From contig NZ_CP019384.1 of NCBI RefSeq assembly GCF_004102945.1, positions 1,650,001-1,682,000 on the forward strand: a DNA stretch of 32,000 nucleotides. Reading direction: 5' to 3'. This document shows, one piece after another, positions 7,658 to 23,215 of the stretch. Under the pieces are notes generated by a model. It was given only the letters and a program-made list of their open reading frames with translations. It had not been told where the DNA came from and did not search any database. Position numbers and translations under genes: made by a program. How positions within the stretch are numbered: the stretch's first letter is position 1; each line of letters opens with the position of its first letter. The DNA comes from Candidatus Velamenicoccus archaeovorus (lineage in GTDB: Bacteria > Omnitrophota > Gorgyraeia > Velamenicoccales > Velamenicoccaceae).

Positions 7658-8046
7658 TTCGTCTCAACCAATTTCTGCAACAGGTTCAGTTTTTTCCGTT
7701 CCCAGACGGAAAAGCCAAGAACAAAAATCCCCATCACCATCGTCAGCGTCTGGGCAAAACGGATCGTGAGGACCTTGAGGATCGCCCTTGGCGCGATGAT
7801 CAACGTCTTCGTCACAGCCAACAGTTTCTTCTCGCGGAGAGAAAGCGGCCCGGCTGTATCCAGCTTACTCAAGATCACCCGCTCCTCTGCGCCGGGTCTC
7901 AAAAGATAAGCCTGCAGACGCTGGCTGGAAAACGCCAGAAAAATCCAGGAAAAAACAACACAGGCGATAAGCGCCCAGCCGCAGAAAAACAACCTGCGGT
8001 TCGCCCTGCGCCATCTCAACAACTGTTCCTGAAGGACCGTATCCAT
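7654..8046 (-). CDS. Small integral membrane protein, unknown function
   Basis: The ORF has two clear hydrophobic segments (FFCGWALIACVVFSWIFLAF and MVMGIFVLGFSVW). I prefer the ATG at 8046, which has AGGAGG 7 nt upstream, over the track's TTG at 8085. Confidence 0.6.
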   Translation of the reverse strand: MDTVLQEQLLRWRRANRRLFFCGWALIACVVFSWIFLAFSSQRLQAYLLRPGAEERVILSKLDTAGPLSLREKKLLAVTKTLIIAPRAILKVLTIRFAQTLTMVMGIFVLGFSVWERKKLNLLQKLVETK

Positions 8047-8081
8047 CACCCGCCTCCTGGCCTTGGATATAGCGAAACCGA

Positions 8082-8315
8082 TCAACCTTTCTTTTTATTA
8101 ATGACGCCGGCGATCTGGTCAAGCGTCTGGTATTTCGTCACTTCCTTCTCTCCGAGCTGCACGCCGAATTCTTTCTGAAGGGCAATGCAGACCTCGACCA
8201 TCTCCGTCGAATCGACGCCCAGGCTCTGCTCAAGGGTCTGGCCTTCTTTAAGCTCTTCCGGCCTGACCTTAAGCAACTTCACGACGACGTCCTTCACCTT
8301 TCCTTTCGTGTCCAT
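8082..8315 (-). CDS. Acyl carrier protein
   Basis: 77-aa ORF with the phosphopantetheine attachment motif LGVDSTEMVEV and an acidic helix-II region. Confidence 0.9.
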   Translation of the reverse strand: MDTKGKVKDVVVKLLKVRPEELKEGQTLEQSLGVDSTEMVEVCIALQKEFGVQLGEKEVTKYQTLDQIAGVINKKKG

Positions 8316-9777: not shown

Positions 9778-11042
9778 TATTGACCCTCCTGGTAACGCTT
9801 CATGACCAGAGACGAATGGATCCCGGAAAATCCGCTCGATGTCTTCAGGATCAAGTCCACCTTTTTCTCAATCGCTTTGTTAGGAATGTAATTCAGGTCG
9901 CACTGCGGATCGCGCACCTCCTGGTTGATCGTCGGAGGAATCAGGTTGCGCTCGAAAATGATGGAGGCCATCACCATCTCGATGGCATTGGCCGCCGCCA
10001 AGGGGTGGCCGATCATGGATTTGAGCGAACTGATCGGTATGCGATACGCCTCTTCGCCCAGGGCGATCTTGTAGGCATTGGTCTCAAAGACGTCGTTCAT
10101 CCGCGTCGAGGAACCGTGCGCATTGACGTAATCGATATCCTTGGGCGCGATCCGGGCGTCCTTGAGCGCGAGCGTGATGCAATTCGCCATGGCCAGGCCG
10201 TCGGCCGGAAGGTCCGTCATGTGGAAAGCGTTATTACAGGTGCCGTAACCGATGATCTCGCAATAAATATGCGCCCCTCGCTTTTTAGCATGCTCAAGTT
10301 CTTCCAAGACCAGAATGCCGCATCCTTCGGAAAGCACAAAGCCGTCGCGTTTGTTGTCAAACGGCCGCGAGGCCTTCTCCGGCTCATCGTTCCTGGCGGA
10401 CAAGACGCTCACCACGTCAAAGGCGCCGAAGGTGATGGGCGTCAGGGGCGCTTCCGAGGCGCCCGCGATCATGATATCCGCGTCACCGTCGGCGATCGTT
10501 TCAAAACAGAACCCCATGGAATCGGTCCCAGCCGTGCATCCGGTCGATATCGTATTGCAGATACCATTGAGATGGTATTTGGCGGCAATCTCGGCCGAAG
10601 GCGTATTGAACATGGAGGCATCATAAAGGTAAGGCCGCACAAGGCGGGGATCGATGGGATTTTTGCCGTTATCCGTCACCAGCGCGAATTCTTCTTCCAT
10701 GTATTTGGTGCCGCAGATGGCATTGGCCAGGCTTACGCCGGCGCGCTGCCTGTTGATCTTTGAAAAATCCAGCTTGGCGTCTTTGACCGCCATCTGGGCC
10801 GCCACGACCGCGAACTGCACATAGCGGTCCATCCGCTCCGCTTCTTCTTCATTCAAGCCCAGCTCGAACGGATTGAACTCCTTGGAATAAGCGGCGATCC
10901 GCGTGCGGAACATCGAGACATCAAACATATCGACCCTGCGCACGGCGGAAACGCCGCCGACCATGGCCTTCCAGCAATTTTCTTTTCCGATACCGTTGGG
11001 CGATATGACACCCAGGCCTGTCACCACAACTCGTCTCTTCAT
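9777..11042 (-). CDS. Ketosynthase alpha (type II PKS-type KS)
   Basis: Active-site ISTGCTAGTD, with the His residues in AFHMTD and NAHGSST. I prefer the start at MKRRVVVTGLG (ATG 11042, AAGGAG 8 nt upstream). The 21 extra N-terminal residues in the track ORF come from an intergenic repeat. Confidence 0.9.
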   Translation of the reverse strand: MKRRVVVTGLGVISPNGIGKENCWKAMVGGVSAVRRVDMFDVSMFRTRIAAYSKEFNPFELGLNEEEAERMDRYVQFAVVAAQMAVKDAKLDFSKINRQRAGVSLANAICGTKYMEEEFALVTDNGKNPIDPRLVRPYLYDASMFNTPSAEIAAKYHLNGICNTISTGCTAGTDSMGFCFETIADGDADIMIAGASEAPLTPITFGAFDVVSVLSARNDEPEKASRPFDNKRDGFVLSEGCGILVLEELEHAKKRGAHIYCEIIGYGTCNNAFHMTDLPADGLAMANCITLALKDARIAPKDIDYVNAHGSSTRMNDVFETNAYKIALGEEAYRIPISSLKSMIGHPLAAANAIEMVMASIIFERNLIPPTINQEVRDPQCDLNYIPNKAIEKKVDLILKTSSGFSGIHSSLVMKRYQEGQ

Positions 11043-11203
11043 GAAAAACACTCCTTTAATCACCAGTGACCAAGAAACAAATCCCAAGCAAATTCCAAAT
11101 CCCAATCACCAATGATCAAACAAACAACAGCGCTGTTTGATTATTGAATCTTGGTGATTGGTTATTGTTTGAGATTGCATCTTGGAGCTTGATTATTGAC
11201 GCG
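11043..11203. repeat. CCAAAT/ATTTGG-rich long hairpin element, copy 1
   Basis: CCAATCACCAA (11102-11112) pairs with TTGGTGATTGG (11151-11161). The central palindrome is AACAGCGCTGTT (11126-11137). The arms share segments with the element at 15335-15514 in inverted orientation. Confidence 0.6.
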
Positions 11204-11836
11204 CTATTTGTCTTTTTCTTCCACTCTCGTCAATTTGAAAACAACATGGCCGCCGTCGGGACACGTCAGCGTATCCAATGAATCCGGGTTTTCCATGAAC
11301 GGATATGACGCCCCGAAATTCAATGCAAACAGCGTCGGGAACATCATATGATAGGCCGCCCCGCAAAAGCCGTCGGGGCACTTGAGCCCTTTGACACGGA
11401 TCTTGTCGCCGATCTCGTAGCCATAATGACACTTGCCTGTGCACTCCTTGATTTCGATGTCCATGGTCTTGGGGTTCGGGCCCGCGGGTGCCGCGCTTCG
11501 GGGCTTCGCCAAAACATTTCCTTGTTCATCAATGACTTCGATCAAAAATTCCACTTTCTTTCCGTCCGGACACGTCGTACGCAAAGACCGCGTGTTTTCC
11601 ATAAAAGGGAACTCTGCACCGAAAGTCAAGGCATACATCGCCGGGAACATCGAATGCACCGCCCCCAGACAGAAATCTTTCTGCGGATGGGTAAAATCCT
11701 CGAAAACAAACTGGTTGCCCACCTCATAGTGGTGATAACAAAATCCTTCTTTCTTGACGACGGTCGCGCGCAAGCGGCAGAATTTCATCCGCAGTCTCCG
11801 CCGCAGCGCCCCAAATGTCTGTTTTTTCTCTTCCAT
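11204..11836 (-). CDS. Tandem-duplicated TIGR04076-like Cys-rich protein
   Basis: Two internal repeats of about 95 aa share C-[HY]-H-x-Y-E-[VI]-G ... FC-x-[GA]-A-x-H-x-MFP-x-x-x-AL-x-FGA-x-x-PFMEN-x-x-SL-x-T-x-CPDG. I prefer the ATG at 11836 (GGGAG 6 nt upstream) over the GTG at 11878. Confidence 0.65.
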   Translation of the reverse strand: MEEKKQTFGALRRRLRMKFCRLRATVVKKEGFCYHHYEVGNQFVFEDFTHPQKDFCLGAVHSMFPAMYALTFGAEFPFMENTRSLRTTCPDGKKVEFLIEVIDEQGNVLAKPRSAAPAGPNPKTMDIEIKECTGKCHYGYEIGDKIRVKGLKCPDGFCGAAYHMMFPTLFALNFGASYPFMENPDSLDTLTCPDGGHVVFKLTRVEEKDK

Positions 11837-11887
11837 CTTAAACTCCCTGTCTCCTCGAGGCCCCCTCAAAAAACGCACAGCCTGATA

Positions 11888-12883
11888 TCAAACTTCCAAG
11901 GCCGCAAGAATTTGTTCCTCCGTCATATATTTTCCAGACTTCTCCACCTGATGCACCATCTCAACGATCCGGGAATTCAGGACCGCGTCGACATTATGAA
12001 GCTTGGCCTGATTGGCGAATTCGCCGTTAATATAATCGATCTCCGAAGGCCGGCCGCGCCGGATACTCTGGAGGATCGAACCATACAGCGGCTCCCGGCT
12101 CAGATTCACCATGATCTGCGAATAAACGGGCGCTGCCTGGTCCGGCGGCATGCGGGTCAACCCCTTAAGCTTCTCAACATCGAACTCCGGCATGCTCGCC
12201 GGTGCGATACCGAGTTTTTCCAAAAGATCGAATCCTTCCCGCTGGAGCCGCAAGGCCAGCTTGCACATCTCCATGTTCGCATACGTCTCCTGGATGCTCT
12301 TGCCCAGGATCGCCGGCAGGGCATTGCCGGAATTCAAAAAAATCTTCGTCCATTTCATCGCCTGGATGTTCTCGACTTCTTCGGCCGCAAATGCCGGCGT
12401 CAAAAAATCGACGACCGCCTTGACCTTTGCGTCATTGGTTCCTCCGGGCCGGCCGATCAGCCATTTGCCCTCAAAATTATGCACGACCTTGTTGTAGGGA
12501 ACATAGGTCGCGCCGAACATAACGATGCTCGAGATGATCCTCTCCTCGCCCAGCATCACCCCCAGGAGCTTGTCGGCACGCACGCCGTTCTGGGCCGAAA
12601 GGATGTCGGCCTGGGCCAAAAAGACGCGCGACTTGTCGACGGCATCCCGGATATCCTGGGTCTTAACCGTCACGATCGCCAGGTCCACGCGCTCTTCCAG
12701 CCGCGGCCGAACGTCCAAATAAACGACCGAACGCCCGCGCACGCCGTCAATCACGAACCCTTCACGCTCTACCGCCTCTTTCTGCTCCGGGCGGCCGACC
12801 GCGACCACAGGGATTCCGCGAGACTTCAAGCAGCAGGCGACGAGCCCGCCGATAGCTCCCAATCCGATAACGGCAACCTTCAT
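11888..12883 (-). CDS. Ketopantoate reductase (ApbA/PanE) family NAD(P)H oxidoreductase
   Basis: 331-aa ORF with the N-terminal MKVAVIGLGAIGG dinucleotide fold and a C-terminal ApbA_C-like block RGRPSEIDYINGEF. Confidence 0.85.
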   Translation of the reverse strand: MKVAVIGLGAIGGLVACCLKSRGIPVVAVGRPEQKEAVEREGFVIDGVRGRSVVYLDVRPRLEERVDLAIVTVKTQDIRDAVDKSRVFLAQADILSAQNGVRADKLLGVMLGEERIISSIVMFGATYVPYNKVVHNFEGKWLIGRPGGTNDAKVKAVVDFLTPAFAAEEVENIQAMKWTKIFLNSGNALPAILGKSIQETYANMEMCKLALRLQREGFDLLEKLGIAPASMPEFDVEKLKGLTRMPPDQAAPVYSQIMVNLSREPLYGSILQSIRRGRPSEIDYINGEFANQAKLHNVDAVLNSRIVEMVHQVEKSGKYMTEEQILAALEV

Positions 12884-13023: not shown

Positions 13024-13542
13024 TCACTGTGTCTCCATGAATATCTTCAGGTTCCCCAGTATCTCTTTGATGTTACGGTCGTGCAGGCGCCGAAAGACCA
13101 GAAACCACAGAAACCTGTTTAAAGATCCGCACACCTCGTAATGCATGGCGTACTCCACCCGCCAGCCGCCGGCCACCCTCTGGAAACTCACTTGCTCGAA
13201 TCCCTTGAACATCCCGTCGAGAAACCTGCGGGAAATGCCCCCGTTCGTCACCTCGCTGACCTCAACGCGCCACCGGGGCGCCAAGGGCAAAAGCACCTTC
13301 TGCATATAGAGGGTGCCTACGGCAACTTCGCCCGAGGAGAGGCGCTTGAAGGCCATCAAAGAACCCTTCGGCCACCACTCCGCCTCCCCCCAGCAGATGA
13401 TTTCTTTTCTCAAAAGAGCAGGTTGGTCCGTCCTGATGATGATGGAATGCCTGTTTTCTTCCACTGTCAGCGGACGCTTGCGCCGTTCCTGACCGGCAGA
13501 CGCCGTTTGAAAAAATTTTCCCGTTTCGCCATGCTCCATCAC
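13024..13542 (-). CDS. SRPBCC-like hypothetical protein
   Basis: 172-aa ORF. The beta-rich middle and long C-terminal helix (NRFLWFLVFRRLHDRNIKEILGNLK) are compatible with a Bet v1/SRPBCC fold. Only its gene context supports a function. Confidence 0.45.
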   Translation of the reverse strand: MMEHGETGKFFQTASAGQERRKRPLTVEENRHSIIIRTDQPALLRKEIICWGEAEWWPKGSLMAFKRLSSGEVAVGTLYMQKVLLPLAPRWRVEVSEVTNGGISRRFLDGMFKGFEQVSFQRVAGGWRVEYAMHYEVCGSLNRFLWFLVFRRLHDRNIKEILGNLKIFMETQ

Positions 13543-13593: not shown

Positions 13594-13869
13594 CTAACGG
13601 GGCAGATTGTATTTCTTATAATCAAAGCCCACATCGTCCAGGAGCTTGATCATCAAAGAATAGAACTGCATAGGCACCTCGGAGAACATGGCGCGCATCA
13701 GATCCTCTTCCTCGACGGTCCTGGAGCCGCGCGTCTTGGCGTTTTGTTCCGCCTTCTGGGTGGCGCCGACCTCCGTCATGTGCCGATGGAAAATCGGCAT
13801 CTTGGAGAGCATCTTATTGAAGCGCTCTTCCGTCGTCTTTTCCCAACTCATGGTGATATGCTCAGACAT
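13594..13869 (-). CDS. PCP_red (protochlorophyllide reductase subunit B C-terminal-like) small protein
   Basis: 91-aa ORF. SWEKTTEERFNKMLSKMPIFHRHMTEVGATQKAEQNAKTRGSRTVEEEDL fits the W..eA...l..iP.F.R......E..A...G...vt.e.l pattern. AGGAG lies 6 nt upstream. The ORF overlaps the radical SAM stop by 8 nt. Confidence 0.55.
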   Translation of the reverse strand: MSEHITMSWEKTTEERFNKMLSKMPIFHRHMTEVGATQKAEQNAKTRGSRTVEEEDLMRAMFSEVPMQFYSLMIKLLDDVGFDYKKYNLPR

Positions 13870-15334
13870 ACAAATCTCCTTTAGTGGCCGCAGCCTCGAA
13901 CTTGGAGATGTTCGCCATATAGTCCTTGACGCAGAGTTTGGCCAGATCTGAATAATTGCCGGCCATGATCCTATGGATACGGTGGGGCCTTGAGAAAAAT
14001 TCCCTCATGCACCAGGACCCCAGACGCCCGACCTCTTCGACGGAAAGGTGTTTAGTCGGGACAACCGGATGCTGAAAATCCCAAGCCTTGAGGCTGATCT
14101 TGGCTGGATCCAGCAGGCCCTCCTTGACGACCTTCTTCCAGAGGGGAGATCCGGGCACGGGTGTCACAAACTGCAACGCAAAAATATCCGGGTCCACCTG
14201 ATCGGCAAATGAAAACCGTTTCTTGACGGCTTCCTCCGTATCATCCTCAAAACCGATCATGAACGTCCCGATCGTCGCGATATTATTCCTGCGCAGGGCA
14301 TCAACGGTCTTCTTGATCTGCGAAACCGTCACCCCTTTGCCGATCCGCGACAACTCGGCATCATCACTGACCTCAATGCCGACCAACCCCATGAACATAC
14401 CGGCCTGCTTCATCAAGGGAATCAAATCCTCCTGTCTCGACCAGTCGTCCGCACGGCCGAGGATCACCCAATTGATCTTGATGCCTTTCTCGAGGATGCC
14501 GTTACAGACATCCTTCACCATATCGTAATTCACGTTAAAGGCGTCATCCTGAAAGACGACGGTCTTGACGCCGAATTTTTTCGTCAAGAGCTCCAGTTCT
14601 TCGACGATCCGGCCGGCGGAGTGCGAACGCCAGGAGACAAAATCCTGCGGAAAGCGCGGATCATACTGGCTCCATTCATAACAGAAAGAACATCCGCCCG
14701 GACACCCGCGGCTGGTAAAAAGCTCGCAGAAATTCGTCCAGTAGGTGTGCGCCACGTATTTCTCCATAGGGAACAGATCGTAAGCAGGTAAAGGAAGAAC
14801 GTCGATATCCTTGATCAGCTCCCTGTGGGGGCCGACCGCGACCTGCCCGGCCTTGCGGGACGCCAGACCGGCGATGCGGGAATAATCCGCCCCTTTTGCG
14901 TCGTCGAGCTTGCGCAGCAATTCATCCAGCGTCTGTTCGCCTTCCCCGATCAGGACAAAATCGATCGCCGGATTTTCTTCCAATGTTTCCCGATAAAGGG
15001 CTGAATACCACAGGCCGCCGACGGCCACCTTGCTATGCGGACTCACCTCTTTGACGGCCTGGGCTATTTTGTTAAAATGCCAGATGACCGCCAGTCCGCC
15101 TGTCGAATGCAGGATATCGCCCAAAACAACAAGGTCGGGCCCGATATCCTTGATCTTCGCCTTGATGCCGTCGTAGGTAAGATCGAGCGCGCGCGCATCC
15201 ACGACAAAAGGCTCTCCGGACTGTTTTTGCCGGACATAGGCCGCCAATTGGGCATAATACTGGTTAGGCGCCTTGATCACGCCGTGCGTCGCCCATCCAC
15301 CGATCGGAGGCATGATGAACAATACTTTTTTCAT
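13862..15334 (-). CDS. B12-binding domain radical SAM enzyme (paralog 2)
   Basis: 490-aa ORF with cluster motif SRGCPGGCSFCYEW. It is collinear with the ORF at 861-2348 along its whole length. GAGGAG lies 6 nt upstream of the ATG. Confidence 0.9.
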   Translation of the reverse strand: MKKVLFIMPPIGGWATHGVIKAPNQYYAQLAAYVRQKQSGEPFVVDARALDLTYDGIKAKIKDIGPDLVVLGDILHSTGGLAVIWHFNKIAQAVKEVSPHSKVAVGGLWYSALYRETLEENPAIDFVLIGEGEQTLDELLRKLDDAKGADYSRIAGLASRKAGQVAVGPHRELIKDIDVLPLPAYDLFPMEKYVAHTYWTNFCELFTSRGCPGGCSFCYEWSQYDPRFPQDFVSWRSHSAGRIVEELELLTKKFGVKTVVFQDDAFNVNYDMVKDVCNGILEKGIKINWVILGRADDWSRQEDLIPLMKQAGMFMGLVGIEVSDDAELSRIGKGVTVSQIKKTVDALRRNNIATIGTFMIGFEDDTEEAVKKRFSFADQVDPDIFALQFVTPVPGSPLWKKVVKEGLLDPAKISLKAWDFQHPVVPTKHLSVEEVGRLGSWCMREFFSRPHRIHRIMAGNYSDLAKLCVKDYMANISKFEAAATKGDLYV

Positions 15335-15514: not shown

Positions 15515-16993
15515 CTACACATTAAACCAAGAGGCGACCAAGGTCTTGCCGCCCGGCGTCAGATCGACATTGACATGCTTGACCTGCGTTAATTCGCACA
15601 GGCCTTCCTTGCCGAGTTCCCGGCCGAAACCGCTCTGCTTGTAGCCGCCGAAAGGCGCTTCGTTATAAAATCCGCCGAAGGTATTGACCCAGACCGTGCC
15701 TGCGCGCAGCCTTCTGGCCACGGTCGCCACCTTGTTGACGTCTTTTGTCCAGATCATGGCCGCCAGGCCATAGATCGTATCGTTGGCAATGCGCACGGCA
15801 TCCTCCGCATCCCTGACTTTGATGACCGACAGGACGGGACCGAAGATCTCCTCTCTGGCGATGCGCATGCTGTTGTCCACATCGGCAAAAATGGTCGGCT
15901 CGACGTAGAAACCCCGGCGCAAATCCTTCGGCGCGCCGCCGCCGACGACCAACCTGGCCTCTTTTTTTCCGACGGCGATATACTCCAAGACGGTTTTTCT
16001 CTGTTTATCGCTGACCAAAGGGCCTATGTCCGTTGCCGGATCCTCGGGCGAACCGACCTTGAGCTTTTTGGTCTTTTCAACCAAAAGCTCGACACACTTC
16101 TCATAAATGGATTCTTCGACCAGAAGCCGCGATCCCGCCACGCACATCTGCCCCTGATTCATGAAGATGGCGCACAAAGAGCCGTTGACGGCCGTCTCCA
16201 GATCGCAGTCCGCAAAAAGGATATTCGGCGACTTGCCGCCGCATTCCAGAGAAAGCCTCTTTAAATTCGAAGAGGCCGCCTTCATCACGTCCCGGCCGAC
16301 TTCCGTCGATCCGGTAAAAGAAAGCATATCGACATCCATGGATGCAGCCAGGCCGTGCCCCAACAGGCGGCCTTCGCCTGTCACGATGTTGACGACGCCG
16401 GCAGGCAATTCCACTTCCTGAAGGATCTTGGCCAGCTCCAGGCAGCTCAACGAGGCCTCCTGCGAAGGCTTAAGCACCAAGGTGTTACCTAAAATAATAC
16501 CTGAGGCAATCTTCCAGGCCGCCATCAGAAACGGATAATTCCACGGGATGACAGCGCCCACGACGCCTACGGGCTCCCGCAGCGTATAGCTCATGGCCGG
16601 CGCCGGGACCGTCATCGTCTCGCCCTTGACCTCGGCGGCAGCCCCAGCAAAATATTCGTAGGCATTGGCGGCGGTCGGGATATCGATGAACGTGGTCTGC
16701 TTGGTCGTCTTGCCGGTGTCCTGCGTCTCGATCTTCGCAAGCTCATAGGCGCGTTCACGGATCAGATGCGCCACGCGCACCAGGATCTGCGCCCGTTCAG
16801 ACAAAGACATCCGCGGCCACTCGCCTTCGTCATAAGCCCGGCGGGCCGCACGGACCGCCTCTTCCAGGTCCGCCGTCCCCGCTTTCGGGAACGATGCAAT
16901 CTTCTCTTCTGTCGCCGGGTTGGCGCCCTCCAGCCGCGCGCCGTCCCTGGCATCGCACATCTTGCCGTCGATATACATCTGATATTGCATCAT
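15515..16993 (-). CDS. NAD(P)+-dependent aldehyde dehydrogenase
   Basis: Catalytic blocks LECGGKSP and FMNQGQMCVAGSRLLV, plus EEIFGPV. I prefer the ATGATG start at 16993 (GAGGA 5 nt upstream) over the track's start at 17020. Confidence 0.9.
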   Translation of the reverse strand: MMQYQMYIDGKMCDARDGARLEGANPATEEKIASFPKAGTADLEEAVRAARRAYDEGEWPRMSLSERAQILVRVAHLIRERAYELAKIETQDTGKTTKQTTFIDIPTAANAYEYFAGAAAEVKGETMTVPAPAMSYTLREPVGVVGAVIPWNYPFLMAAWKIASGIILGNTLVLKPSQEASLSCLELAKILQEVELPAGVVNIVTGEGRLLGHGLAASMDVDMLSFTGSTEVGRDVMKAASSNLKRLSLECGGKSPNILFADCDLETAVNGSLCAIFMNQGQMCVAGSRLLVEESIYEKCVELLVEKTKKLKVGSPEDPATDIGPLVSDKQRKTVLEYIAVGKKEARLVVGGGAPKDLRRGFYVEPTIFADVDNSMRIAREEIFGPVLSVIKVRDAEDAVRIANDTIYGLAAMIWTKDVNKVATVARRLRAGTVWVNTFGGFYNEAPFGGYKQSGFGRELGKEGLCELTQVKHVNVDLTPGGKTLVASWFNV

Positions 16994-17039
16994 CTTATCC
17001 TCGCAGCATCCATGCCCCACACGCAGGTGCGGGGTAAAA

Positions 17040-18035
17040 CTATGCTACCGGCGCGCTCGTCCACAGATCGAAGAGCCGGTTGAACGGCACATACCAGCGC
17101 GAAATCTTGGCGAAATCCCCTTTAAGTTTCAGCTTCTTCTGCGTCGTCGCGGCAAAGGGATCGAGCTGGCGCTTGAAGATCGCGCGCCAGTAATCCGATT
17201 TGCCGGAGATCACGAATTCGGCGTCGCCGACCTTGTCCGTGAAATCCTTGATCCCGCCTCCGGAAAAATGGAAGCAGTATGCCGTCTGGGTCTCGTCCAG
17301 CACGACCGCCAGTTTCGTCTCCAGGTTCGTCTGCAGGGCGAGCTGGCGGAACTGGGCGTCCTGATTCACGAGACGCACAATCTCGACTATCTGCTCTTTG
17401 GAGAACAATTCAAAAGTCCCGCCCGCAGGAGAAACAGCCGCATTCCCGCCCGAAGCCGGCGCCGCCGGACGATCCACTCTTACATAAAGATCTTTGATGC
17501 AGGCGATCTTGACCGCTTCCTCCAGGGTCTGCGCCAAAAAGAACGCATCGTTCAACGTCTCTCCGATGGCCACGACCCCATGGTGCTTCAAGACAACGAT
17601 ATTGCTGTTTTTGAGCGCCTCGATCACCGGCATGATATCGGTGATCGTCGGCGTCTTCTGGTCGACGACCGGCACGTCCCCTAAAACAAGACGTGTCTCG
17701 AACGTATCAAAACTGATCCTGTCATGGACGGCAAAATACCCGTTGCAAAACGTCGGATGTACGTGAACGACAGCCTTGGCATCCAGATGCTGATAAACGC
17801 TCGTATGGAACAATTTTTCAGAAGACGGGACGAACCCTTTGACCAAGGGGTCGCCGTCCATGCGTATGGTGCAGACGTCTTCGGCCTTGAGCGCACCCAA
17901 GCAGGTGCCGCGGCCCGTGATCAGGATGGTCTCGTCGTCAACGCGCAGGCTTAGATTACCAGAGGCGCCGCCCGAGAGGTCCTTCTCCCAGATCCACTTG
18001 CCGATACGGATAATCTCGTCTATCTTTTTCTGCAT
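17040..18035 (-). CDS. Class II aldolase/adducin-family enzyme fused to a C-terminal SCP2 sterol-carrier domain
   Basis: The N-terminal half has GGASGNLS, VVHVHP (HxH metal ligands) and KHHGVVAIG. The C-terminal roughly 110 aa has an SCP2-like pattern (FVISGKSDYWRAIFKRQLDPFAATTQKKLKLKGDF). The ATG at 18035 lies 4 nt after the upstream stop. Confidence 0.8.
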   Translation of the reverse strand: MQKKIDEIIRIGKWIWEKDLSGGASGNLSLRVDDETILITGRGTCLGALKAEDVCTIRMDGDPLVKGFVPSSEKLFHTSVYQHLDAKAVVHVHPTFCNGYFAVHDRISFDTFETRLVLGDVPVVDQKTPTITDIMPVIEALKNSNIVVLKHHGVVAIGETLNDAFFLAQTLEEAVKIACIKDLYVRVDRPAAPASGGNAAVSPAGGTFELFSKEQIVEIVRLVNQDAQFRQLALQTNLETKLAVVLDETQTAYCFHFSGGGIKDFTDKVGDAEFVISGKSDYWRAIFKRQLDPFAATTQKKLKLKGDFAKISRWYVPFNRLFDLWTSAPVA

Positions 18036-18039
18036 ATCC

Positions 18040-18528
18040 TTATGCTCCCGGATTCTGTCCTTGCGTGCGGCCGACAAGGCTCATCGGCACTTCTTCCAGC
18101 AAAGGGACATATGTCTTGATCTTCGACGACGTCACCTTCATCCCCCCAATCTTTAACAGGTCGGCGCCCTTCGCCTCGCGCGGCATGGCGCCCTCATGCA
18201 AAACGACCGGGATCCGATGGGTGTGGGCGCAGAGGGCCGCGATCAGGGAACCCGTGCGGCAAAGCGCGACATCGTTTTTCCGGCCTTGCGCAAAGATGTG
18301 GACGGCGCTCACGAGTTTCCTTTCCATACAAAACGCCATCATATTATCGCAGATGACGACCGGCTTGACGCCGCGCCCTATGAGTTCTTTGGCGACGTCT
18401 TTCATGCCTTCCAAGGCCGGCCTCAATTCCGCCACAAAGACCTTTTTCGCCTTGAGTTGCGCGTAAAAATCCTCCTGCGGCACGCCGAAAATAAGAGGTA
18501 TTTGTTCTTTAACGAGCATGAATCGCAA
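18040..18528 (-). CDS. Truncated IF-2B/MtnA-family paralog (C-terminal Rossmann half only)
   Basis: 162-aa ORF. VFVAELRPALEG...VVICDNMMAFCM...CRTGSLIAALCAHTHRIPVVL parallels the ETRP..QG...LI.DNA...ANKIGTY..A..A....IPFYV region of the neighbouring MtnA-like protein. It lacks the GxDR Asp and the N-terminal domain. Confidence 0.6.
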   Translation of the reverse strand: MRFMLVKEQIPLIFGVPQEDFYAQLKAKKVFVAELRPALEGMKDVAKELIGRGVKPVVICDNMMAFCMERKLVSAVHIFAQGRKNDVALCRTGSLIAALCAHTHRIPVVLHEGAMPREAKGADLLKIGGMKVTSSKIKTYVPLLEEVPMSLVGRTQGQNPGA

Positions 18529-19477
18529 TATGTTTTGTCACCCATTGGTGCGGCACGACGTCGAAACCCGGATAAAAAGCGGCTGTGCCTTCAGGCGCAA
18601 GATTCCTGCCGGCAAAACACAGGATCTCTTCGTCCCGACGCACCTCGATCGGGATCTCGCGGCCTGAACTTAATTTGTCCGACGACTGGACAAGCACGTA
18701 AAAAGGGATGCCGAAATGCCGGGCCAGAAGAGCGATCTGATATGTCCCTATCTTGTTGGCGAAGTCGCCGTTGGCCGCGGAACGGTCGGAGCCGACAAGG
18801 ACGCAATCCACGTCACCATCGCTCATGACCTTGGCCGCCGCATTGTCCGGGATAAGCGTCACATCAAAACCCTCCCGTTTCAGTTCCCAGGCGGTCAGCC
18901 GCGAACCCTGAAAATAAGGCCGCGTCTCCGTGGCCAGAAAACGGACCTTCTTTTTTGCCTTTCGGCAGAACTCCGCGACTAGGGGCAGCTCGCCGGAGAC
19001 GTTGCAGTGCGTCAATACCGTGGCGCCGTCCTTGATCAATGCGGCAGCTTCCTGGGCCCTTTGATACCTCTTCTGCCTGATCCCCTGCTCCAAGAAACCG
19101 TTCATGGCCGAAATAAAATCCTGACGGAACATGGGACTTCCGGAGACCTTGCGCGCCACCCCCAGCACCATGCCCGTCACTTCCTCGAAGGGAAACGTGG
19201 GACGGCTCCTGTTGAAGGCCGCGGCGACGCGTTCAAGCAAACGCATCTGCGCACCGGCCGAAAGCCCGTCGGCCTTCTGCATCTCCAGCATGAACGTATA
19301 GCAGACGGTCAAAAACTGCCCGAAGGCGCGCGTCTTCATCGTCACGACCGCGTCGATCGCCTGATGATAATGACGGACCTTCAGGTAAACGATCCGCTGC
19401 GGTATCTTTGTCTCGTCTAAGATATAAAGCGTGCGGCCCTTCAGATGCACGGGCCAAAAGAGAACAGATTCTTTCAT
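18509..19477 (-). CDS. MtnA-type (IF-2B family) sugar-1-phosphate isomerase
   Basis: 322-aa ORF with LTHCN (catalytic Cys), ATETRPYFQGSRLTAWEL, VGSDRSAANGDFANKIGTY and IPFYV. No SD sequence precedes the ATG. Confidence 0.85.
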   Translation of the reverse strand: MKESVLFWPVHLKGRTLYILDETKIPQRIVYLKVRHYHQAIDAVVTMKTRAFGQFLTVCYTFMLEMQKADGLSAGAQMRLLERVAAAFNRSRPTFPFEEVTGMVLGVARKVSGSPMFRQDFISAMNGFLEQGIRQKRYQRAQEAAALIKDGATVLTHCNVSGELPLVAEFCRKAKKKVRFLATETRPYFQGSRLTAWELKREGFDVTLIPDNAAAKVMSDGDVDCVLVGSDRSAANGDFANKIGTYQIALLARHFGIPFYVLVQSSDKLSSGREIPIEVRRDEEILCFAGRNLAPEGTAAFYPGFDVVPHQWVTKHIAIHAR

Positions 19478-19686
19478 TAATTTTGCCTATACTAGGGTCC
19501 TTTTCCTCGCAAAATTAACCCCTGCCCGCCTTTGGGCGGGCGAGTCTACGCAGGAAATTTACGCCGGATGGCCGTCCTGGCCGGCTACGCCAGGCCGACG
19601 GCCTAGCCTTGGCGGAAATTTCCAAGTGATTAGACGCAAGGGTAACCTTAATATCCTTAATTTTGCCTCTACCGAGGTATTATTCC
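19478..19686 (-). repeat. Intergenic cassette copy 2, with a core at each end, before the MtnA-like gene
   Basis: Cores lie at 19476-19498 (TATAGGCAAAATTA directly followed by the ATG) and 19654-19678. Stem 19553-19567 pairs with 19607-19623 and encloses GGCCGTC/GACGGCC (19570-19576 with 19597-19603). There is an extra hairpin CCCGCC-tttg-GGCGGG. Confidence 0.7.
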
Positions 19687-20439
19687 TTATGACCCTTGCG
19701 CCAGCTTCTTGACCGCATCCAGGCACACCTTGACCACCCTGGCCTCGGCCTCGTAATAATCCGGGTTGATGAAACCGAGCTCGCCGGTGATCAGATTATC
19801 GCTGACGGCCGAGATCGAGGCGGCCTTGACATTGTTCAATTGCGCGATCGTCAGAAGCGCGCTCGACACCATGTCGACGGCCACGGCCCCCTCTTTTTTG
19901 ACCTTCTCGATCAATTCCCGGGTCTCGCGCAACAGCGCATCCGTCGTCCAGATCAGTCCTTTGCGGATCGAGACCTCGTTTTCTTTGGCCGTTGCTTCCA
20001 GGGCCGCCGTCACAGACACATCCGTCACTGTTTTATAATCCTTGTCCACGTAATAGGGCGTCACACCGTCGCCGCGCACGACACCTGTGGCCAGGACGAC
20101 ATCGCCGACCTTGATGGTCTCATCCAGGGCGCCGCAGGAACCGGCCCGGATGATGCACTCGACCTTCCCGGCGCACAGGATCTCGGCGATGATCGCGGAA
20201 TCCGGCGAAAACCGCCCGCCGTTGCCGACGGCGATCTTGATGCCCTCATAAAAGCCCGTATACATCGTATATTCAAAAAAGGAAAAGCTCTTGACCGGTT
20301 TTTCCAGATGCTCCAGGATCGCATCTCGGCGCTCGGCCGTGCCCGGAATAATGGCATACTTGCCGAAATCTCCCGGCTTGACTTGGACCATTCCCAGAAG
20401 ATCCCGACCTGTCAAATGGATGTCTTTCTTCATCTGCAT
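19687..20439 (-). CDS. PNP/UDP-family nucleoside phosphorylase
   Basis: 250-aa ORF with IIPGTAERRDAI, RAGSCGAL and VGDVV, laid out like hexameric PNP/Udp/MTAP-type phosphorylases. AAGGAG lies 7 nt upstream of the ATG. Confidence 0.8.
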   Translation of the reverse strand: MQMKKDIHLTGRDLLGMVQVKPGDFGKYAIIPGTAERRDAILEHLEKPVKSFSFFEYTMYTGFYEGIKIAVGNGGRFSPDSAIIAEILCAGKVECIIRAGSCGALDETIKVGDVVLATGVVRGDGVTPYYVDKDYKTVTDVSVTAALEATAKENEVSIRKGLIWTTDALLRETRELIEKVKKEGAVAVDMVSSALLTIAQLNNVKAASISAVSDNLITGELGFINPDYYEAEARVVKVCLDAVKKLAQGS

Positions 20440-20560
20440 AGTGAACTCCTTAATTTTGCCTATACCGAGGTTTTTTCCTTACAAAATTAACCCCGAAGCT
20501 CGCGAAAAAAATTTATTGCCGGCCTACCCTGGCAATAAATTTTCGAGCGTTTGAGCAAGG
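20440..20560 (-). repeat. Intergenic cassette copy 3 before the nucleoside phosphorylase gene
   Basis: Core at 20446-20471, and TTGTAA at 20484..20479. A perfect 12-bp stem AAATTTATTGCC/GGCAATAAATTT (20509-20520 with 20531-20542) has the loop GGCCTACCCT. A U-run follows it on the minus strand. Confidence 0.7.
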
Positions 20561-20906
20561 GGTCTTTCTTAACAATCGTCCGTCTCTGACGGGGTTAGGC
20601 CCTCCGCTATGTGGAATGCGGAGGCCTACCCTTTCTGGGTTAACTCCACCACCCGGCCTCATCGGATTGGCCGGTGTGCCGCTTCCTGCGGCGGTGTATC
20701 TTGAGAATTTCTGGATGCACCTGGCCCCAGCTGAACGGGCCAGTGTTCCGCTTTCTGCGGAACCCGTCCGAACTCTGTGAGGACTGGTCGCAGACAGATA
20801 TTGACAAAATGCAAACGCGAGGAGTAAGGTTAATTTCCTTCATTTTGCCTATATTGAGGTAGTTTTACCTTAATTCCTGCCTACAACAGGTTATTCATCA
20901 CAAAAG
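20561..20906 (-). promoter_or_regulatory. Long structured non-coding leader (candidate cis-regulatory RNA)
   Basis: Two more core copies lie at 20835-20860 and 20867-20891. Nested hairpins follow: GTTCCGC/GCGGAAC (20745-20751 with 20757-20763), GCCGC/GCGGC (20678-20682 with 20688-20692), CCGGCC/GGCCGG (20653-20658 with 20669-20674) and GGCCCTCCGC/GCGGAGGCC (20598-20607 with 20618-20626). No convincing ORF is present. Confidence 0.5.
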
Positions 20907-22433
20907 TTAACATTTTTCCCCCACATTCACGTCATTCTGTCTCAACGCCACCTTGTCGATCTTGCCGGTCCTCGTCTTAGGAAGAGTATCGACGAAAACA
21001 ACGGTGTGGGGGATCTTAAAATGCGCCAGGTGCTGGCGGCAGAATTGCTTGACGTCCTGATCCGTGAGCGCTGTGCCTGTCTTCAGGACGATAAACGCCT
21101 TCAATGCTTCTCCGCGCAGCGCGTCGGAGACACCGATAACCCCGACTTCCGCCACGGCCGGGTGCTTGTGGACCGCCTCTTCGATTTCCGCCGGAAAGAC
21201 AATCTGGCCGGAAACCTTGACCATGTCTTTCTTGCGGCCGGCGATATAATACATGCCCTCTTTGTCCCGGCGGCCCAGGTCACCCGTATGGAACCAGCCG
21301 TCCCGCAAGACTTCTGCGGTCAGGGCGGGGTCCTTGTAATAACCGTCCATGACCACCCAGCTCTTCAGGACGATCTCCCCGATCTCGCTTTCGGGCACGT
21401 CCTGGTCGTCATCGTCGACCAGGCGGACGCTGATCCACGGCGCCGGCCTGCCGATAGACTCGATCTTCTCGGACCCCATGGGCGTCACGATATTCGGGGC
21501 GTTTGTCTCGGTCATCCCCCAGCCGTTAAGCAGCTTGGCATTCGGGCAATAGGTCTTGAAGCGGCGGATGGCGTCGGGTGAATTCGGGGCGCCGAAGACG
21601 TTGACCCACCGGATGCTGGAAAGGTCGTATTTCTCGAATTCCTTGAGGTGCAGGAGGGCGTAATACATCGACGGCACCATGTGAAAACAGGTCACCTTGT
21701 ATTTTTCTATATTTTTGAGATACTCGACGGGAATGAAGCGTTCCATGAGAATGAGGGTGATGCCGTAAAAAATGCAGTTCTGCAGGTAGACCAGTCCGCC
21801 GCCGTGCGACAACGGCAAGGCCGATAATTTCACGTCGGACGGCGTCAAGTCCACGAAAAACTCCATCGCCTCCGGCGCCGCGTTCAAATGCCGGTAACTC
21901 AGGCAAACCCCTTTGGGGCGGCCGGTCGAACCCGAGGTGTACAGGATCAAGGCGGGATCGGATGCGCCGATGGACGCCGAGGGAGCTTTGGAAGACCCCT
22001 GGGCAACGAAGTCATCGAAAGAAAGATATCCTTCTTTGCGTTCACGCGCAAGAAGGATATCCTTGAGCTTCGGCACGTGCGCCTTGATATTCTCCAGAGA
22101 AACATCAGGCCTGCTCTTGGCGACGAGAAGGACGGAATCGGAATGGTTTAAGCAGGCTTCCAGCTCATCATTCTTCAGCATGAAATCGAACGGAACGACG
22201 GTGGCGCCGATAGAAAACAAAGCCAGGTAGGCGTAAATATATTCCGGCCAGTTCGGCAGATACAAGGCGACCTTGTCGCCCTTCTTGACCCCCGAGGCCG
22301 TCAGATTGTTGGCGAGCCTGAAGACCCTGTCTTTGAGCTCACCGAACGTAACAGGCTTGTCTTCAAAGATAATAGCGGCTTTTTTTGGAAAAGCAGCCGC
22401 CTGTTTTATCACCAAGTCCCGGATTATCTGCAT
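20907..22433 (-). CDS. AMP-dependent acyl-CoA synthetase/ligase
   Basis: AMP-binding motif YTSGSTGRPKGV, plus WGMTE, GWFHTGD and the C-terminal PKTRTGKI. The start is ambiguous. I prefer the ATG at 22433 because the GTG at 22460 would place a strong hairpin inside the coding sequence. Confidence 0.88.
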   Translation of the reverse strand: MQIIRDLVIKQAAAFPKKAAIIFEDKPVTFGELKDRVFRLANNLTASGVKKGDKVALYLPNWPEYIYAYLALFSIGATVVPFDFMLKNDELEACLNHSDSVLLVAKSRPDVSLENIKAHVPKLKDILLARERKEGYLSFDDFVAQGSSKAPSASIGASDPALILYTSGSTGRPKGVCLSYRHLNAAPEAMEFFVDLTPSDVKLSALPLSHGGGLVYLQNCIFYGITLILMERFIPVEYLKNIEKYKVTCFHMVPSMYYALLHLKEFEKYDLSSIRWVNVFGAPNSPDAIRRFKTYCPNAKLLNGWGMTETNAPNIVTPMGSEKIESIGRPAPWISVRLVDDDDQDVPESEIGEIVLKSWVVMDGYYKDPALTAEVLRDGWFHTGDLGRRDKEGMYYIAGRKKDMVKVSGQIVFPAEIEEAVHKHPAVAEVGVIGVSDALRGEALKAFIVLKTGTALTDQDVKQFCRQHLAHFKIPHTVVFVDTLPKTRTGKIDKVALRQNDVNVGEKC

Positions 22434-22453
22434 AGCCACATACTTTCCCTGGG

Positions 22454-22484
22454 GCCCCACGGGTATAGTCCGTGGGGCTTTTTT
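22454..22484 (+). terminator. Intrinsic-terminator-shaped hairpin, oriented on the plus strand
   Basis: GCCCCACGG (22454-22462), a 7-nt loop, CCGTGGGGC (22470-22478), then TTTTTT (22479-22484). On the gene-sense (minus) strand it is an A6-preceded 5'-UTR hairpin with no U-tract. Confidence 0.4.
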
Positions 22485-22530: not shown

Positions 22531-22597
22531 ATTAGTAAAATTTTACTAATTAAATTTTAGTATGTCAAGAATTATTCTTGTTTTGTTTTCACAAAAC
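22531..22597. promoter_or_regulatory. Three dyad-symmetric operator candidates overlapping the promoter
   Basis: ATTAGTAAAATTTTACTAAT (22531-22550) is a perfect 20-bp palindrome covering the -10 box. CAAGAATTATTCTTG (22566-22580) abuts the -35 box. GTTTTGT-tttc-ACAAAAC lies at 22580-22597. Confidence 0.45.
22540..22568 (-). promoter_or_regulatory. Sigma-70-like promoter candidate for the biosynthetic locus
   Basis: The minus strand reads TTGACA (22568..22563), a 17-nt spacer, then TAAAAT (22545..22540). It sits in an AT-rich gap between the PadR stop and the acyl-CoA ligase start. Confidence 0.5.
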
Positions 22598-22654: not shown

Positions 22655-23215
22655 CTAAGAGGAATGGGGCCACTCGGGGATATTGATATTCTTATTGGTA
22701 AGCTCCTGGCTGACGTTTTGGATGAACTTTTTTTCAGCGCGCAGAAGCTCCAGATTGTGCTCGACGATGGAATGAAGATGGTAGGACGACTTCACCTGAA
22801 GTTGTTCGGAAAGCTTCCCTAAGGCCTCCTCGACTTTGGAGAGGACCCGTATCCGGCCCTTGAGCCGCCTCAAGGCGACATCCGGCGGCAGATAGGGCAG
22901 AAAATAAAGAGCAACGTCGATACTGAAATTCGGGCGGTCGGCCGTCAAAAGACTTTTCGTCAACAACTGCTGGAAGCGTTCATGCCCTTTGGGCGTCAGG
23001 CTGTAGATGAATTTTTCCGGCCTTGTGCCGCCGGTACTGACCGCCTTCTTGAGATATCCCTTTTTTTCAAGGAGGTTGAGGGAGTAATAGATCGATTCGA
23101 CTTCCAACGCGGCAAACGTGCTGATCACGTCCTTGATCTGTTTTTTGATCTCGTAGCCGTGCCGCGGCTTATCCTCCAAGAGCCCCAGGATGATCAATTC
23201 CTGCTCAATCTTCAT
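22655..23215 (-). CDS. PadR-family transcriptional regulator
   Basis: The N-terminal winged helix LIILGLLEDKPRHGYEIKKQI...ESIYYSLNLLEKKGYL is followed by a C-terminal helical domain. GGAGG lies 10 nt upstream. Confidence 0.85.
   Translation of the reverse strand: MKIEQELIILGLLEDKPRHGYEIKKQIKDVISTFAALEVESIYYSLNLLEKKGYLKKAVSTGGTRPEKFIYSLTPKGHERFQQLLTKSLLTADRPNFSIDVALYFLPYLPPDVALRRLKGRIRVLSKVEEALGKLSEQLQVKSSYHLHSIVEHNLELLRAEKKFIQNVSQELTNKNINIPEWPHSS

Follow-up and report, generated by a model that had tools for sequence, protein, structure and literature searches.

A phosphorylase-isomerase-aldolase module in a conserved Omnitrophota type II polyketide synthase operon: a possible route from nucleosides to a polyketide building block

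Candidatus Velamenicoccus archaeovorus (phylum Omnitrophota) carries a block of five consecutive genes at 15515-20439 of a 32,000-nucleotide stretch of contig NZ_CP019384.1 (positions 1,650,001 to 1,682,000), which is referred to here as the window and supplies all coordinates below. In the order of transcription, the block encodes a nucleoside phosphorylase of the PNP/UDP family (PNP), an MtnA/DrdI-like isomerase of the IF-2B family, a shortened IF-2B paralog (half-IF-2B), a class II aldolase fused to an SCP2 domain, and an aldehyde dehydrogenase (ALDH). It is preceded by a gene for an acyl-CoA ligase and followed by genes for a type II polyketide synthase (PKS). With a probability of roughly 0.45, the five genes and the ligase constitute a biosynthetic sub-pathway of a type II PKS cluster that is conserved across Omnitrophota, and not a housekeeping or clean-up function. 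This reading draws on the family membership of the proteins, their conserved catalytic residues, the operon structure and the co-occurrence of the genes. An initial annotation of the same DNA was right about the coordinates and about the identity of all five genes, and had taken them for a unit that disposes of the nucleoside by-products that radical S-adenosylmethionine (SAM) enzymes form.

The gene order is conserved. A genome scan with the aldolase-SCP2 fusion recovered six loci, four titled Candidatus Omnitrophota or Omnitrophica and two labelled Planctomycetia and Deltaproteobacteria; synteny was complete in all six, flanks included. In protein searches, the fusion had more than 900 relatives and the phosphorylase more than 2000, and all source names among the top 120 of each search point to Omnitrophota, save for an occasional 'Deltaproteobacteria' label. 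A locus set was assembled from context look-ups and from 80 metagenome loci retrieved by means of a family alignment, and was scored by tblastn against the window proteins. The counts given here are over 83 non-identical loci (designated by L numbers), include only those extending far enough for the gene in question, and cover loci whose aldolase is as little as 44% identical. The order PadR, ligase, PNP, isomerase, half-IF-2B, aldolase-SCP2, ALDH, (B12-binding radical SAM enzyme), ApbA, ketosynthase (KS), chain length factor (CLF), acyl carrier protein (ACP) and cyclases was observed to be the same in every one of about 80 related loci reaching far enough, to about 45% identity. The isomerase (59/59), ALDH (54/54), PNP (53/53) and ApbA (37/37) genes are present throughout, and those for half-IF-2B (67/68), the ligase (42/43), KS (34/35) and CLF (32/33) are each missing once. 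The few 'misses' of KS, CLF and cyclase genes are due to inserted selfish genes that push the gene past the end of the locus. A radical SAM enzyme, rSAM_A, follows ALDH in 41 of 43 loci, and PadR is present in 36 of the 40 loci with enough upstream sequence. The initial annotation had proposed checking co-occurrence of the block with the PKS core in relatives. The window-type block always adjoins the type II PKS core. Three lineages (L007-type, L073 and L077) retain the block without an adjacent rSAM_A. Three upstream flanks were found, namely comM to accA in the clade of the window, EAL, CNNM and epimerase genes, and, in L011, a CRISPR-Cas locus. This variation of the flank by clade indicates a linkage that goes beyond conserved chromosome order. 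Chance gene order was rejected on account of its repetition in about 80 loci.

At some loci, selfish genes lie between the genes of an intact block (L046 1087-2605 and 7264-9751; L063 4906-6341; L064 11139-12611). They encode a DNA methyltransferase with an HNH/restriction-like partner, Fic/DOC proteins, parts of nucleotidyltransferase-type toxin-antitoxin systems and secreted proteins.

The genes also appear to form a tightly packed transcription unit. All genes of the region, called by Pfam and NCBIfam scans of the window proteins together with a listing of small open reading frames (ORFs), lie on the minus strand, so that transcription runs from high to low coordinates. The junctions from the ligase to ALDH measure 0-11 nt in typical loci, and the ligase stop codon abuts the PNP start in most loci, including L007, L009 and L106. 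The sole strong promoter-like site on the coding strand is located 5' of the ligase gene, between it and the PadR gene, at 22540-22568 on the minus strand (TTGACA-17-TAAAAT, 11/12). The call is a consensus match only, and shuffled sequences contain just as many such sites as the region does, so that the position alone is suggestive. It is likely that the operon starts there. An Rfam scan of the whole window at the gathering threshold gave no match, and hence no riboswitch in the intergenic gaps.

Solved MtnA structures can be aligned with the isomerase along the whole of its sequence. Its best model is the MtnA subfamily model NF004326 (240 bits, cut-off 271), and it reaches 216 bits against the MtnA equivalog model, under the cut-off of 279. 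In Bacillus subtilis MtnA, Cys160 and Asp240 have a catalytic role. They align with Cys158 and Asp211 of the window protein, both invariant in 60 homologues, in agreement with the earlier call of a catalytic Cys and Asp. Its identity to each of the MtnA/DrdI references is 32-37%, and it falls in a clade of its own, from which MtnA and DrdI are equidistant. Judging from these features, the protein is predicted to be an MtnA/DrdI-like enzyme of the type that converts an aldose 1-phosphate to a ketose 1-phosphate. In the half-IF-2B protein, which is also part of the paralogous cassette described below, the ExRP motif is preserved, as is the Asp from the DN motif, but the N-domain and Cys loop are missing. 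It is possibly a partner subunit of the isomerase.

The likely start of the aldolase-SCP2 fusion gives a protein of 331 residues, the same length as its homologues. It consists of a class II aldolase domain (about residues 1-187), a disordered linker (188-204) and an SCP2 domain (about 205-331), for which the Pfam score is 33.4 bits, above the cut-off of 21.3. In an AlphaFold2 model (pLDDT 89.6), the linker is disordered and the C-terminal alpha/beta domain at 205-331 is separate and confidently predicted. The class II aldolase call of the initial annotation thus stands, but the C-terminal SCP2 domain, which is fused to every aldolase of the family, had been overlooked. The residues N29, G44, S71, S72, E73, H92, H94 and H155 of FucA are retained, and Y113 is replaced by Phe. 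The best-matching models are those of archaeal-type FucA-like aldolases and the OtnC decarboxylase, with no NCBIfam equivalog cut-off met. Identity amounts to 22.0% with Escherichia coli Ald2, 22.7% with Bacillus DrdA, 27% with FucA and 31% with YgbL/OtnC. DrdA (6btd) scores 36 bits and YgbL 73 bits; a fold search with the model of the fusion placed YgbL, FucA and DrdA all near E 1e-14, without discrimination. The densest invariant run of the fusion, exceeding the aldolase domain in this respect, is the C-terminal SCP2 motif DPF[VA]ATTQKK..LKGDF.KIS.WY.P, encoded within 17040-17400. In one representative protein, P0264 (694 residues), a radical SAM N-terminal half is joined to an aldolase-SCP2 from which about 47 residues are missing at the start; this is either a genuine fusion or a chimera produced by assembly or a frameshift.

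The phosphorylase is closest to the uridine phosphorylase and DeoD models of NCBIfam, every one of which it matches far under the cut-off, and its identity is 26% with E. coli DeoD and likewise with Pfs. Of the DeoD residues, Arg24, Arg87, Ser90, Met180 and Asp204 are retained, including the purine-type SD motif; in the numbering of the window protein, the phosphate-binding Arg37 and Arg98 and the catalytic Asp214 are present. In E. coli PNP, His4 contributes a neighbour-subunit contact to the 5'-OH and Glu181 a contact to the 2'- and 3'-OH. These residues are replaced by Met17 and Val191, respectively, both invariant among 54-59 homologues, and counterparts of DeoD Arg43 and Arg217 are lacking. 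The enzyme is DeoD-like and probably purine-specific, with an altered ribose and 5' pocket, and the Met that stands in for His where the 5'-OH is contacted speaks against unmodified adenosine or inosine as its substrate. Because the loci contain no kinase, the PNP-family enzyme itself must supply the 1-phosphate that an MtnA-type isomerase needs. Among close relatives (L001-L003), no other protein of the locus comes near the conservation of the phosphorylase, whose identity is 97.6-99.6% compared with 79-96% for its neighbours.

Neighbour-joining (NJ) trees were built with E. coli ATCC 11775 MtnA and Ald2 (from the mtnK-mtnA-ald2 cluster, whose DHAP shunt has been studied experimentally), Bacillus DrdI and DrdA (from a drdK-drdI-drdA-type locus), B. 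subtilis and Thermotoga maritima MtnA, and E. coli FucA, AraD, YgbL, DeoD and Pfs as references. With few taxa and no support values, these trees show distance and not fine placement; they contain no MtnB reference, and scores of MtnB hidden Markov models were used instead. For the isomerase, the aldolase and the phosphorylase alike, the Omnitrophota sequences group in a separate clade. Phylogenetic placement, which the initial annotation had called for, hence assigns the isomerase and the aldolase to none of MtnA/DrdI, Ald2/DrdA and FucA.

The ALDH reaches no NCBIfam equivalog cut-off, and its sequence shows the catalytic motifs with Cys and Glu. For the ligase, the best NCBIfam match is PRK06187 (447 bits, cut-off 476); matches in the PDB are generic ANL enzymes only (feruloyl, FadD, malonyl and oxalyl) and allow no substrate call, and its nearest relatives are medium- and long-chain acyl-CoA ligases. 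The window holds the minimal set of a type II PKS, consisting of a KS with a Cys-His-His triad, a CLF without the active Cys, and an ACP. All three triad residues of KS are invariant among homologues. The CLF, which scores 268 bits against the actinorhodin CLF and 215 bits against the actinorhodin KS, has neither Cys, the usual Gln nor His at the corresponding positions; the Arg, Asp and Asn found there instead are invariant, as is the motif D-R-A-S-S (33 homologues). The Gln of a canonical CLF decarboxylates malonyl-ACP and thereby primes the chain. Since an invariant Arg takes the place of this priming Gln, an external starter would be expected.

Relatives of the block outside this gene arrangement were also found. 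Aldolase-SCP2 fusions reach down to about 30% identity in an exhaustive search of cluster representatives, and with a profile built from the distant members, a second subfamily was found in Omnitrophota. Its cassette is about 35% identical to the window block, has no phosphorylase and no ligase, and shows the order B12-binding radical SAM enzyme, Amidohydro_2, Aminotran_4, IF-2B, half-IF-2B, aldolase-SCP2 and ALDH. The leading radical SAM enzyme is 52-53% identical to rSAM_A (L103, L107, L109, L110), and the Amidohydro_2 protein is 37-40% identical to that encoded at 2511-3431 of the window. In L107, L109 and L110, the second cassette directly follows the PKS tail of the same cluster type (KS-CLF-ACP-cyclase-ARO-MFS-SDR), and its ALDH gene is followed by DeoC and a Zn-dependent alcohol dehydrogenase and/or an MMPL (sterol-sensing type)/DUF1329/DUF1302 exporter with a 4HBT thioesterase. 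In L103, a complete Omnitrophota genome of 1.82 Mb, the cassette occurs with the exporter and without a PKS within 10 kb. The window itself does not contain the second cassette and keeps an Amidohydro_2 and radical SAM pair at the distal end of its cluster. L106 (4206-15798) represents a further arrangement, in which accA, PadR, ligase, PNP, IF-2B, a B12-binding radical SAM enzyme, half-IF-2B, aldolase-SCP2, MMPL, DUF1329 and DUF1302 follow one another; this locus shares the accA-PadR flank with the window and has no ALDH and no PKS within 10 kb. The fusions of Thermodesulfobacteriota stand alone. The window-type and second-cassette locus sets, with flanks of up to 10 kb, show no nucleotide overlap. 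Overall, isomerase, half-IF-2B and aldolase-SCP2, usually with ALDH, make up a mobile evolutionary unit whose steadiest companion is a B12-binding radical SAM enzyme, and its other neighbours (PKS, MMPL exporter and long-chain-type ligase), together with SCP2, point to a hydrophobic product.

What would such a module do within a PKS operon? From family membership, conserved residues and comparative genomics, the following sequence of reactions is proposed. The DeoD-like phosphorylase would strip the purine from a 5'-modified nucleoside, and the resulting pentose 1-phosphate would be converted to the ketose 1-phosphate by the MtnA-like isomerase, perhaps with the half-IF-2B protein. The Zn-dependent aldolase would then cut between C3 and C4 to give dihydroxyacetone phosphate (DHAP) and an aldehyde bearing C4, C5 and the 5' substituent, while a hydrophobic part would be bound or passed on by the SCP2 domain fused to it. 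Oxidation of the aldehyde by ALDH would yield an acid, which the ligase would activate as a CoA or ACP thioester, and KS/CLF would use this thioester, most simply as a non-acetate starter. The 5' substituent could be small and SAM-derived (methylthio or H), or larger and hydrophobic, in which case it is possibly installed or modified by the neighbouring B12-binding radical SAM enzyme; as the steadiest companions of the cassette, these enzymes may make or modify the substrate. The Cys and Asp of the isomerase, the Zn, Glu and phosphate residues of the aldolase, and the phosphate-binding Arg and the Asp of the phosphorylase are invariant. The operon structure and the ligase are explained by such a biosynthetic role, and the CLF also fits it. 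That the aldehyde might pass through an acid to a CoA thioester feeding the PKS had been raised in the initial annotation as a secondary possibility; it fits the operon structure better than clearance does, with each of its steps as yet putative.

Several points weigh against building-block supply. The aldolase is nearest to the YgbL/OtnC decarboxylase and Tyr113 of FucA is missing, so that aldol cleavage is not certain. Lacking the Glu that contacts the 2'- and 3'-OH and the His that contacts the 5'-OH, the phosphorylase may not act on an ordinary nucleoside. In Pfam and NCBIfam scans, the window was found to contain no ketosynthase III (KSIII) and no acyltransferase for loading of a starter. 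The cassettes of L106 and L103 occur without a nearby PKS, and feeding of the PKS therefore cannot be the sole role of the module. The steady association with B12-binding radical SAM enzymes keeps a link to their by-products alive, and no enzyme activity or product is known for the module.

The first alternative is the one favoured in the initial annotation, according to which the block serves specifically to dispose of or salvage by-products of the B12-binding radical SAM enzymes of the cluster, namely 5'-deoxyadenosine and possibly 5'-methylthioadenosine (MTA) or S-adenosylhomocysteine. These would be converted to DHAP and acetaldehyde or (methylthio)acetaldehyde, and then to acetate or acetyl-CoA. 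Such a role is consistent with the position of rSAM_A after ALDH in nearly all loci, with the rSAM_A-like enzyme that leads the paralogous cassette in L103, L107, L109 and L110, and with the B12-binding radical SAM enzyme inside the block in L106. The enzyme families are those of the DHAP shunt and the 5-deoxyribose pathway, and a 5'-deoxy substrate would suit the Met that replaces the 5'-OH-binding His of DeoD. However, the block is retained in the three lineages without rSAM_A, and the second cassette lacks the phosphorylase, the sole step required for removal of the inhibitor. In E. coli, inhibition by 5'-deoxyadenosine and MTA is relieved by the nucleosidase Pfs only, and not by MtnK, MtnA or Ald2 (PMC10986504). 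The phylum contains two cassettes of about 35% identity, the second in the same cluster type, which implies differing substrates instead of one generic by-product. The SCP2 fusion, half-IF-2B, ALDH and the translationally coupled ligase would be superfluous for disposal, and the enzymes are not orthologs of Ald2/DrdA, MtnA/DrdI, MtnP or MtnN. Dedicated clearance thus appears unlikely. The premise of two radical SAM genes immediately downstream also held only in part, with rSAM_A adjacent to the block and rSAM_B 13 kb further, at the far end of the cluster.

A second alternative is the attachment of two carbons by way of adenosylation. A radical SAM enzyme would couple the 5'-deoxyadenosyl radical, in an anoxic setting, to an unactivated, hydrophobic intermediate of polyketide or lipid nature, and PNP would then remove the adenine, much as HpnG acts on adenosylhopane. 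After isomerisation, the SCP2-aldolase would remove C1-C3 as DHAP and leave -CH2-CHO on the intermediate, which ALDH and the ligase would turn into -CH2-CO-S-CoA, with SCP2 holding the hydrophobic part. The presence of SCP2 on every aldolase of the family and the conservation of its motif are in line with this proposal, as are the MMPL (sterol-sensing type), DUF1329 and DUF1302 exporter genes adjoining related cassettes, the affinity of the ligase to medium- and long-chain acyl-CoA ligases, the evolutionary linkage of radical SAM enzyme and cassette, and the altered 5' and ribose pocket of PNP. HpnH/HpnG and MqnE/MqnB provide precedents (PMC13459092). The radical SAM enzymes found here, however, are B12-binding and BchE/HpnJ-like, whereas the known adenosylating enzymes HpnH and MqnE are of another type. 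The phosphorylase scores 52 bits against the HpnG model (cut-off 187) and 25 bits against the futalosine hydrolase model (cut-off 125), the block is kept in lineages without rSAM_A, and no adenosylated intermediate is known. This grafting of two carbons is regarded as distinctly unlikely; if true, it would be a third biosynthetic use of the adenosyl moiety of SAM, beside futalosine and the hopanoid side chains, and would be present in other Omnitrophota in two paralogous copies inside the polyketide/lipid cluster type of the phylum.

It is quite improbable that the aldolase-like protein is instead another enzyme of the class II aldolase/adducin superfamily (a decarboxylase, dehydratase or epimerase), in which case the ketose 1-phosphate would give a different product, and ALDH and the ligase would have other substrates. 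The nearest sequence and fold matches, which include the YgbL/OtnC decarboxylase, the replacement of Tyr113 of FucA by Phe and the failure to meet any equivalog cut-off would be in keeping with such an activity. By contrast, the remaining FucA residues are kept in full, and a PSSE motif stands where OtnC has Lys. ALDH follows the aldolase in all window-type loci that could be scored, fitting an aldehyde product, and the enolase-phosphatase-type genes that an MtnB-like dehydratase needs are absent. Very improbable, finally, is ordinary scavenging of nucleosides for carbon with a merely coincidental PKS neighbour, which could appeal to the host dependence ascribed to members of Omnitrophota and to the existence of a catabolic cluster of DeoD, MtnA, class II aldolase and a nucleoside-binding ABC transporter, but which is at odds with the strict co-location and translational coupling with ligase and PKS genes across deep divergence and differing flanks, with the lack of a nucleoside transporter in the loci, and with the lack of the SCP2 fusion and half-IF-2B in catabolic clusters. 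The catabolic cluster in question (L095 1200-7112; Pusillibacter faecalis replicon NZ_AP023421.1) encodes a class II aldolase, DeoR, a cupin, an SDR, MtnA, a BMP-family nucleoside-binding ABC transporter and DeoD, and has the look of nucleoside use similar to the DHAP shunt, in a DeoD-based form, in a Firmicute of the gut.

Ordinary methionine salvage, named in the initial annotation as a finding that would overturn its proposal, was rejected. Against the aldolase, MtnB models reach 58.9 bits (cut-off 137) and, for the N-terminal half only, 69 bits (cut-off 226), and no mtnB-, mtnC-, mtnD-, mtnW-, mtnX- or mtnK-type gene and no nucleosidase gene was found among the window ORFs or in the gene calls of the related loci.

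How does the module compare with known systems? The likeness to the DHAP shunt and 5-deoxyribose disposal (MtnP or MtnN with MtnK/DrdK, MtnA/DrdI, Ald2/DrdA) seen in the initial annotation holds for the three superfamilies and for their logical order, which can be read as phosphorylase, isomerase, aldolase and ALDH, the isomerase and aldolase residues are retained, and DHAP and an aldehyde would be the expected products. It does not extend to orthology, since the three proteins form clades of their own and the phosphorylase is DeoD/uridine phosphorylase-like and not MtnP or MtnN. Moreover, the block adds half-IF-2B, the SCP2 fusion, ALDH and a coupled ligase, and sits in a type II PKS operon. 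The fluoroacetate pathway of Streptomyces cattleya, which comprises a fluorinase, the phosphorylase FlB, an isomerase, a class II aldolase and an aldehyde dehydrogenase, is biosynthetic and not a salvage route. In that organism, 5'-fluorodeoxyadenosine is converted to DHAP and fluoroacetaldehyde (PMC6079011). Phosphorolysis, isomerisation of the 1-phosphate, aldol cleavage to DHAP and X-CH2-CHO, and oxidation to X-CH2-COOH would be common to both; the differences are that no SAM_HAT/DUF62 (fluorinase/chlorinase) gene occurs among the window proteins, in the loci examined or among the ORFs inserted in the block elsewhere, and that the acid would here pass on to a ligase and a PKS.

The chloroethylmalonyl-CoA route of salinosporamide, with the chlorinase SalL and the phosphorylase SalT, turns a SAM-derived 5'-modified nucleoside into a PKS building block. 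As proposed here, the pentose carbons of a phosphorolysed 5'-modified nucleoside become part of a polyketide. In contrast to the block, phosphatase, dehydrogenase, dehydratase and decarboxylase steps follow and isomerase and aldolase are lacking, and the product is an extender unit for a type I PKS/nonribosomal peptide synthetase in an actinomycete. The futalosine route keeps only part of the ribose. In HpnH/HpnG and MqnE/MqnB, a PNP-family enzyme likewise removes the base, and C5' of the nucleoside is bonded to a hydrophobic skeleton (PMC13459092), but these systems have no isomerase or aldolase step, and no HpnH- or MqnE-type radical SAM enzyme is found here. Type II PKSs with a ligase-supplied starter (enterocin EncN; aurachin AuaE/EII) resemble the present cluster in their minimal KS/CLF/ACP, in ARO/CYC and DpsY-type cyclases, and in having an ANL ligase that heads the cluster; they differ in that the starter here would derive from a nucleoside and not from an aromatic acid, and in the Arg that replaces Gln in CLF. 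Omnitrophica KS-CLF pairs appear only as entries in a catalogue of type II PKSs (PMC10132072). As the initial annotation had supposed, literature searches found no described module of this kind in a polyketide cluster, and none linking an MtnA-type isomerase to a polyketide starter.

The path from nucleoside via pentose 1-phosphate and ketose 1-phosphate to DHAP and aldehyde has so far been associated with salvage, carbon scavenging and fluoroacetate formation. If building-block supply is correct, the module would be the first case of DHAP-shunt-type chemistry built into a polyketide operon, with a bearing on the reuse of SAM-derived nucleosides. The SCP2-fused aldolase, the half-length IF-2B partner, and the coupled ALDH and ligase belong to no described pathway, and the module offers a testable starting point for finding the product of an anaerobic pathway, to an aromatic polyketide or a lipid, that extends across this uncultured phylum. 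The features of the region are compiled in Table 1.

Table 1. Genes and intergenic inserts of the window, listed in the direction of transcription, and positions of the second cassette in related loci.
Feature	Position	Strand	Remarks
PadR-family regulator	22655-23215	-	Pfam PadR E 9e-16
AMP-forming acyl-CoA (or acyl-ACP) ligase	20907-22460	-	AMP-binding and AMP-binding_C; first gene of operon
Intergenic insert with GC-rich hairpins	20440-20906		between ligase and PNP
PNP/UDP-family nucleoside phosphorylase	19687-20439	-	PNP_UDP_1 E 6e-35
Second intergenic insert, same repeat family	19478-19686		between PNP stop and isomerase start
MtnA/DrdI-like isomerase (IF-2B family)	18509-19477	-	IF-2B E 1e-50
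half-IF-2B protein, 162 aa	18040-18528	-	matches IF-2B profile positions 129-212 only
Class II (Zn) aldolase-SCP2 fusion	17040-18035	-	Aldolase_II E 8e-37; ORF to 18077, likely ATG 18035
NAD(P)-dependent, non-acylating ALDH	15515-17020	-	Aldedh E 3e-175
rSAM_A, B12-binding radical SAM enzyme, BchE/HpnJ-like	13862-15334	-	usual neighbour of block
172-aa protein	13024-13542	-	
ApbA/ketopantoate-reductase-like reductase	11888-12883	-	
Tandem TIGR04076 protein	11204-11878	-	
KS (KS alpha)	9777-11105	-	Cys190-His330-His367 triad
CLF-like KS beta	8539-9777	-	Arg162, Asp302, Asn339 at Cys/His/His positions
ACP	8082-8315	-	PP-binding E 3e-10
Small membrane protein	7654-8085	-	
PF04199 cyclase	6851-7657	-	
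SRPBCC aromatase/cyclase	6308-6751	-	
MFS transporter	4959-6086	-	
SDR	4189-4962	-	
CBM11-like protein	3493-4176	-	
Amidohydro_2 family protein (decarboxylase/hydrolase type)	2511-3431	-	distal cluster end
rSAM_B, second B12-binding radical SAM enzyme	861-2348	-	47% identical to rSAM_A
Second cassette, L103	5428-20447		
Second cassette, L107	5433-14490		
Second cassette, L109	5376-17772		
Second cassette, L110	5456-12439		

Like rSAM_A, rSAM_B is BchE/HpnJ-like. Matches of rSAM_A in the PDB are weak and limited to AprD4, TokK and CysS, and allow no substrate call. Against TIGR04072, the model of a 'ladderane' lipid radical SAM enzyme, rSAM_A reaches 100 bits at a cut-off of 360. Omnitrophota are listed among the phyla with 'ladderane-like' biosynthetic gene cluster calls (PMC9902471), and the sub-threshold match to TIGR04072 together with the TIGR04076 protein suggests that these calls may be clusters of the present type.

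Neither the window nor the genes inserted in the block at other loci include a halogenase, kinase, nucleoside transporter, KSIII or acyltransferase. Above 23300, the window contains accA, LysM-YkuD, DUF212, comM and a two-component system, all of which are housekeeping-looking. The two intergenic inserts at the ligase/PNP and PNP/isomerase junctions belong to one repeat family. Five copies of a repeat of about 25-37 nt that ends in a Shine-Dalgarno sequence (minus strand '..CCTCGGTATAGGCAAAATTAAGGA') were found, in the stretches 2357-2470, 19474-19690 and 20447-20872, so that copies recur upstream of rSAM_B. The repeats flank hairpin-rich inserts of about 180 bp (PNP/isomerase) and about 390 bp (ligase/PNP). 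At the same junctions, close relatives have about 7 bp (PNP/isomerase) and 146-220 bp (ligase/PNP; L001/L002), and distant loci 0-2 bp. From these shorter junctions, it follows that the strain of the window has gained intergenic insertions resembling miniature inverted-repeat transposable elements or repetitive extragenic palindromes, which duplicated the ribosome-binding region.

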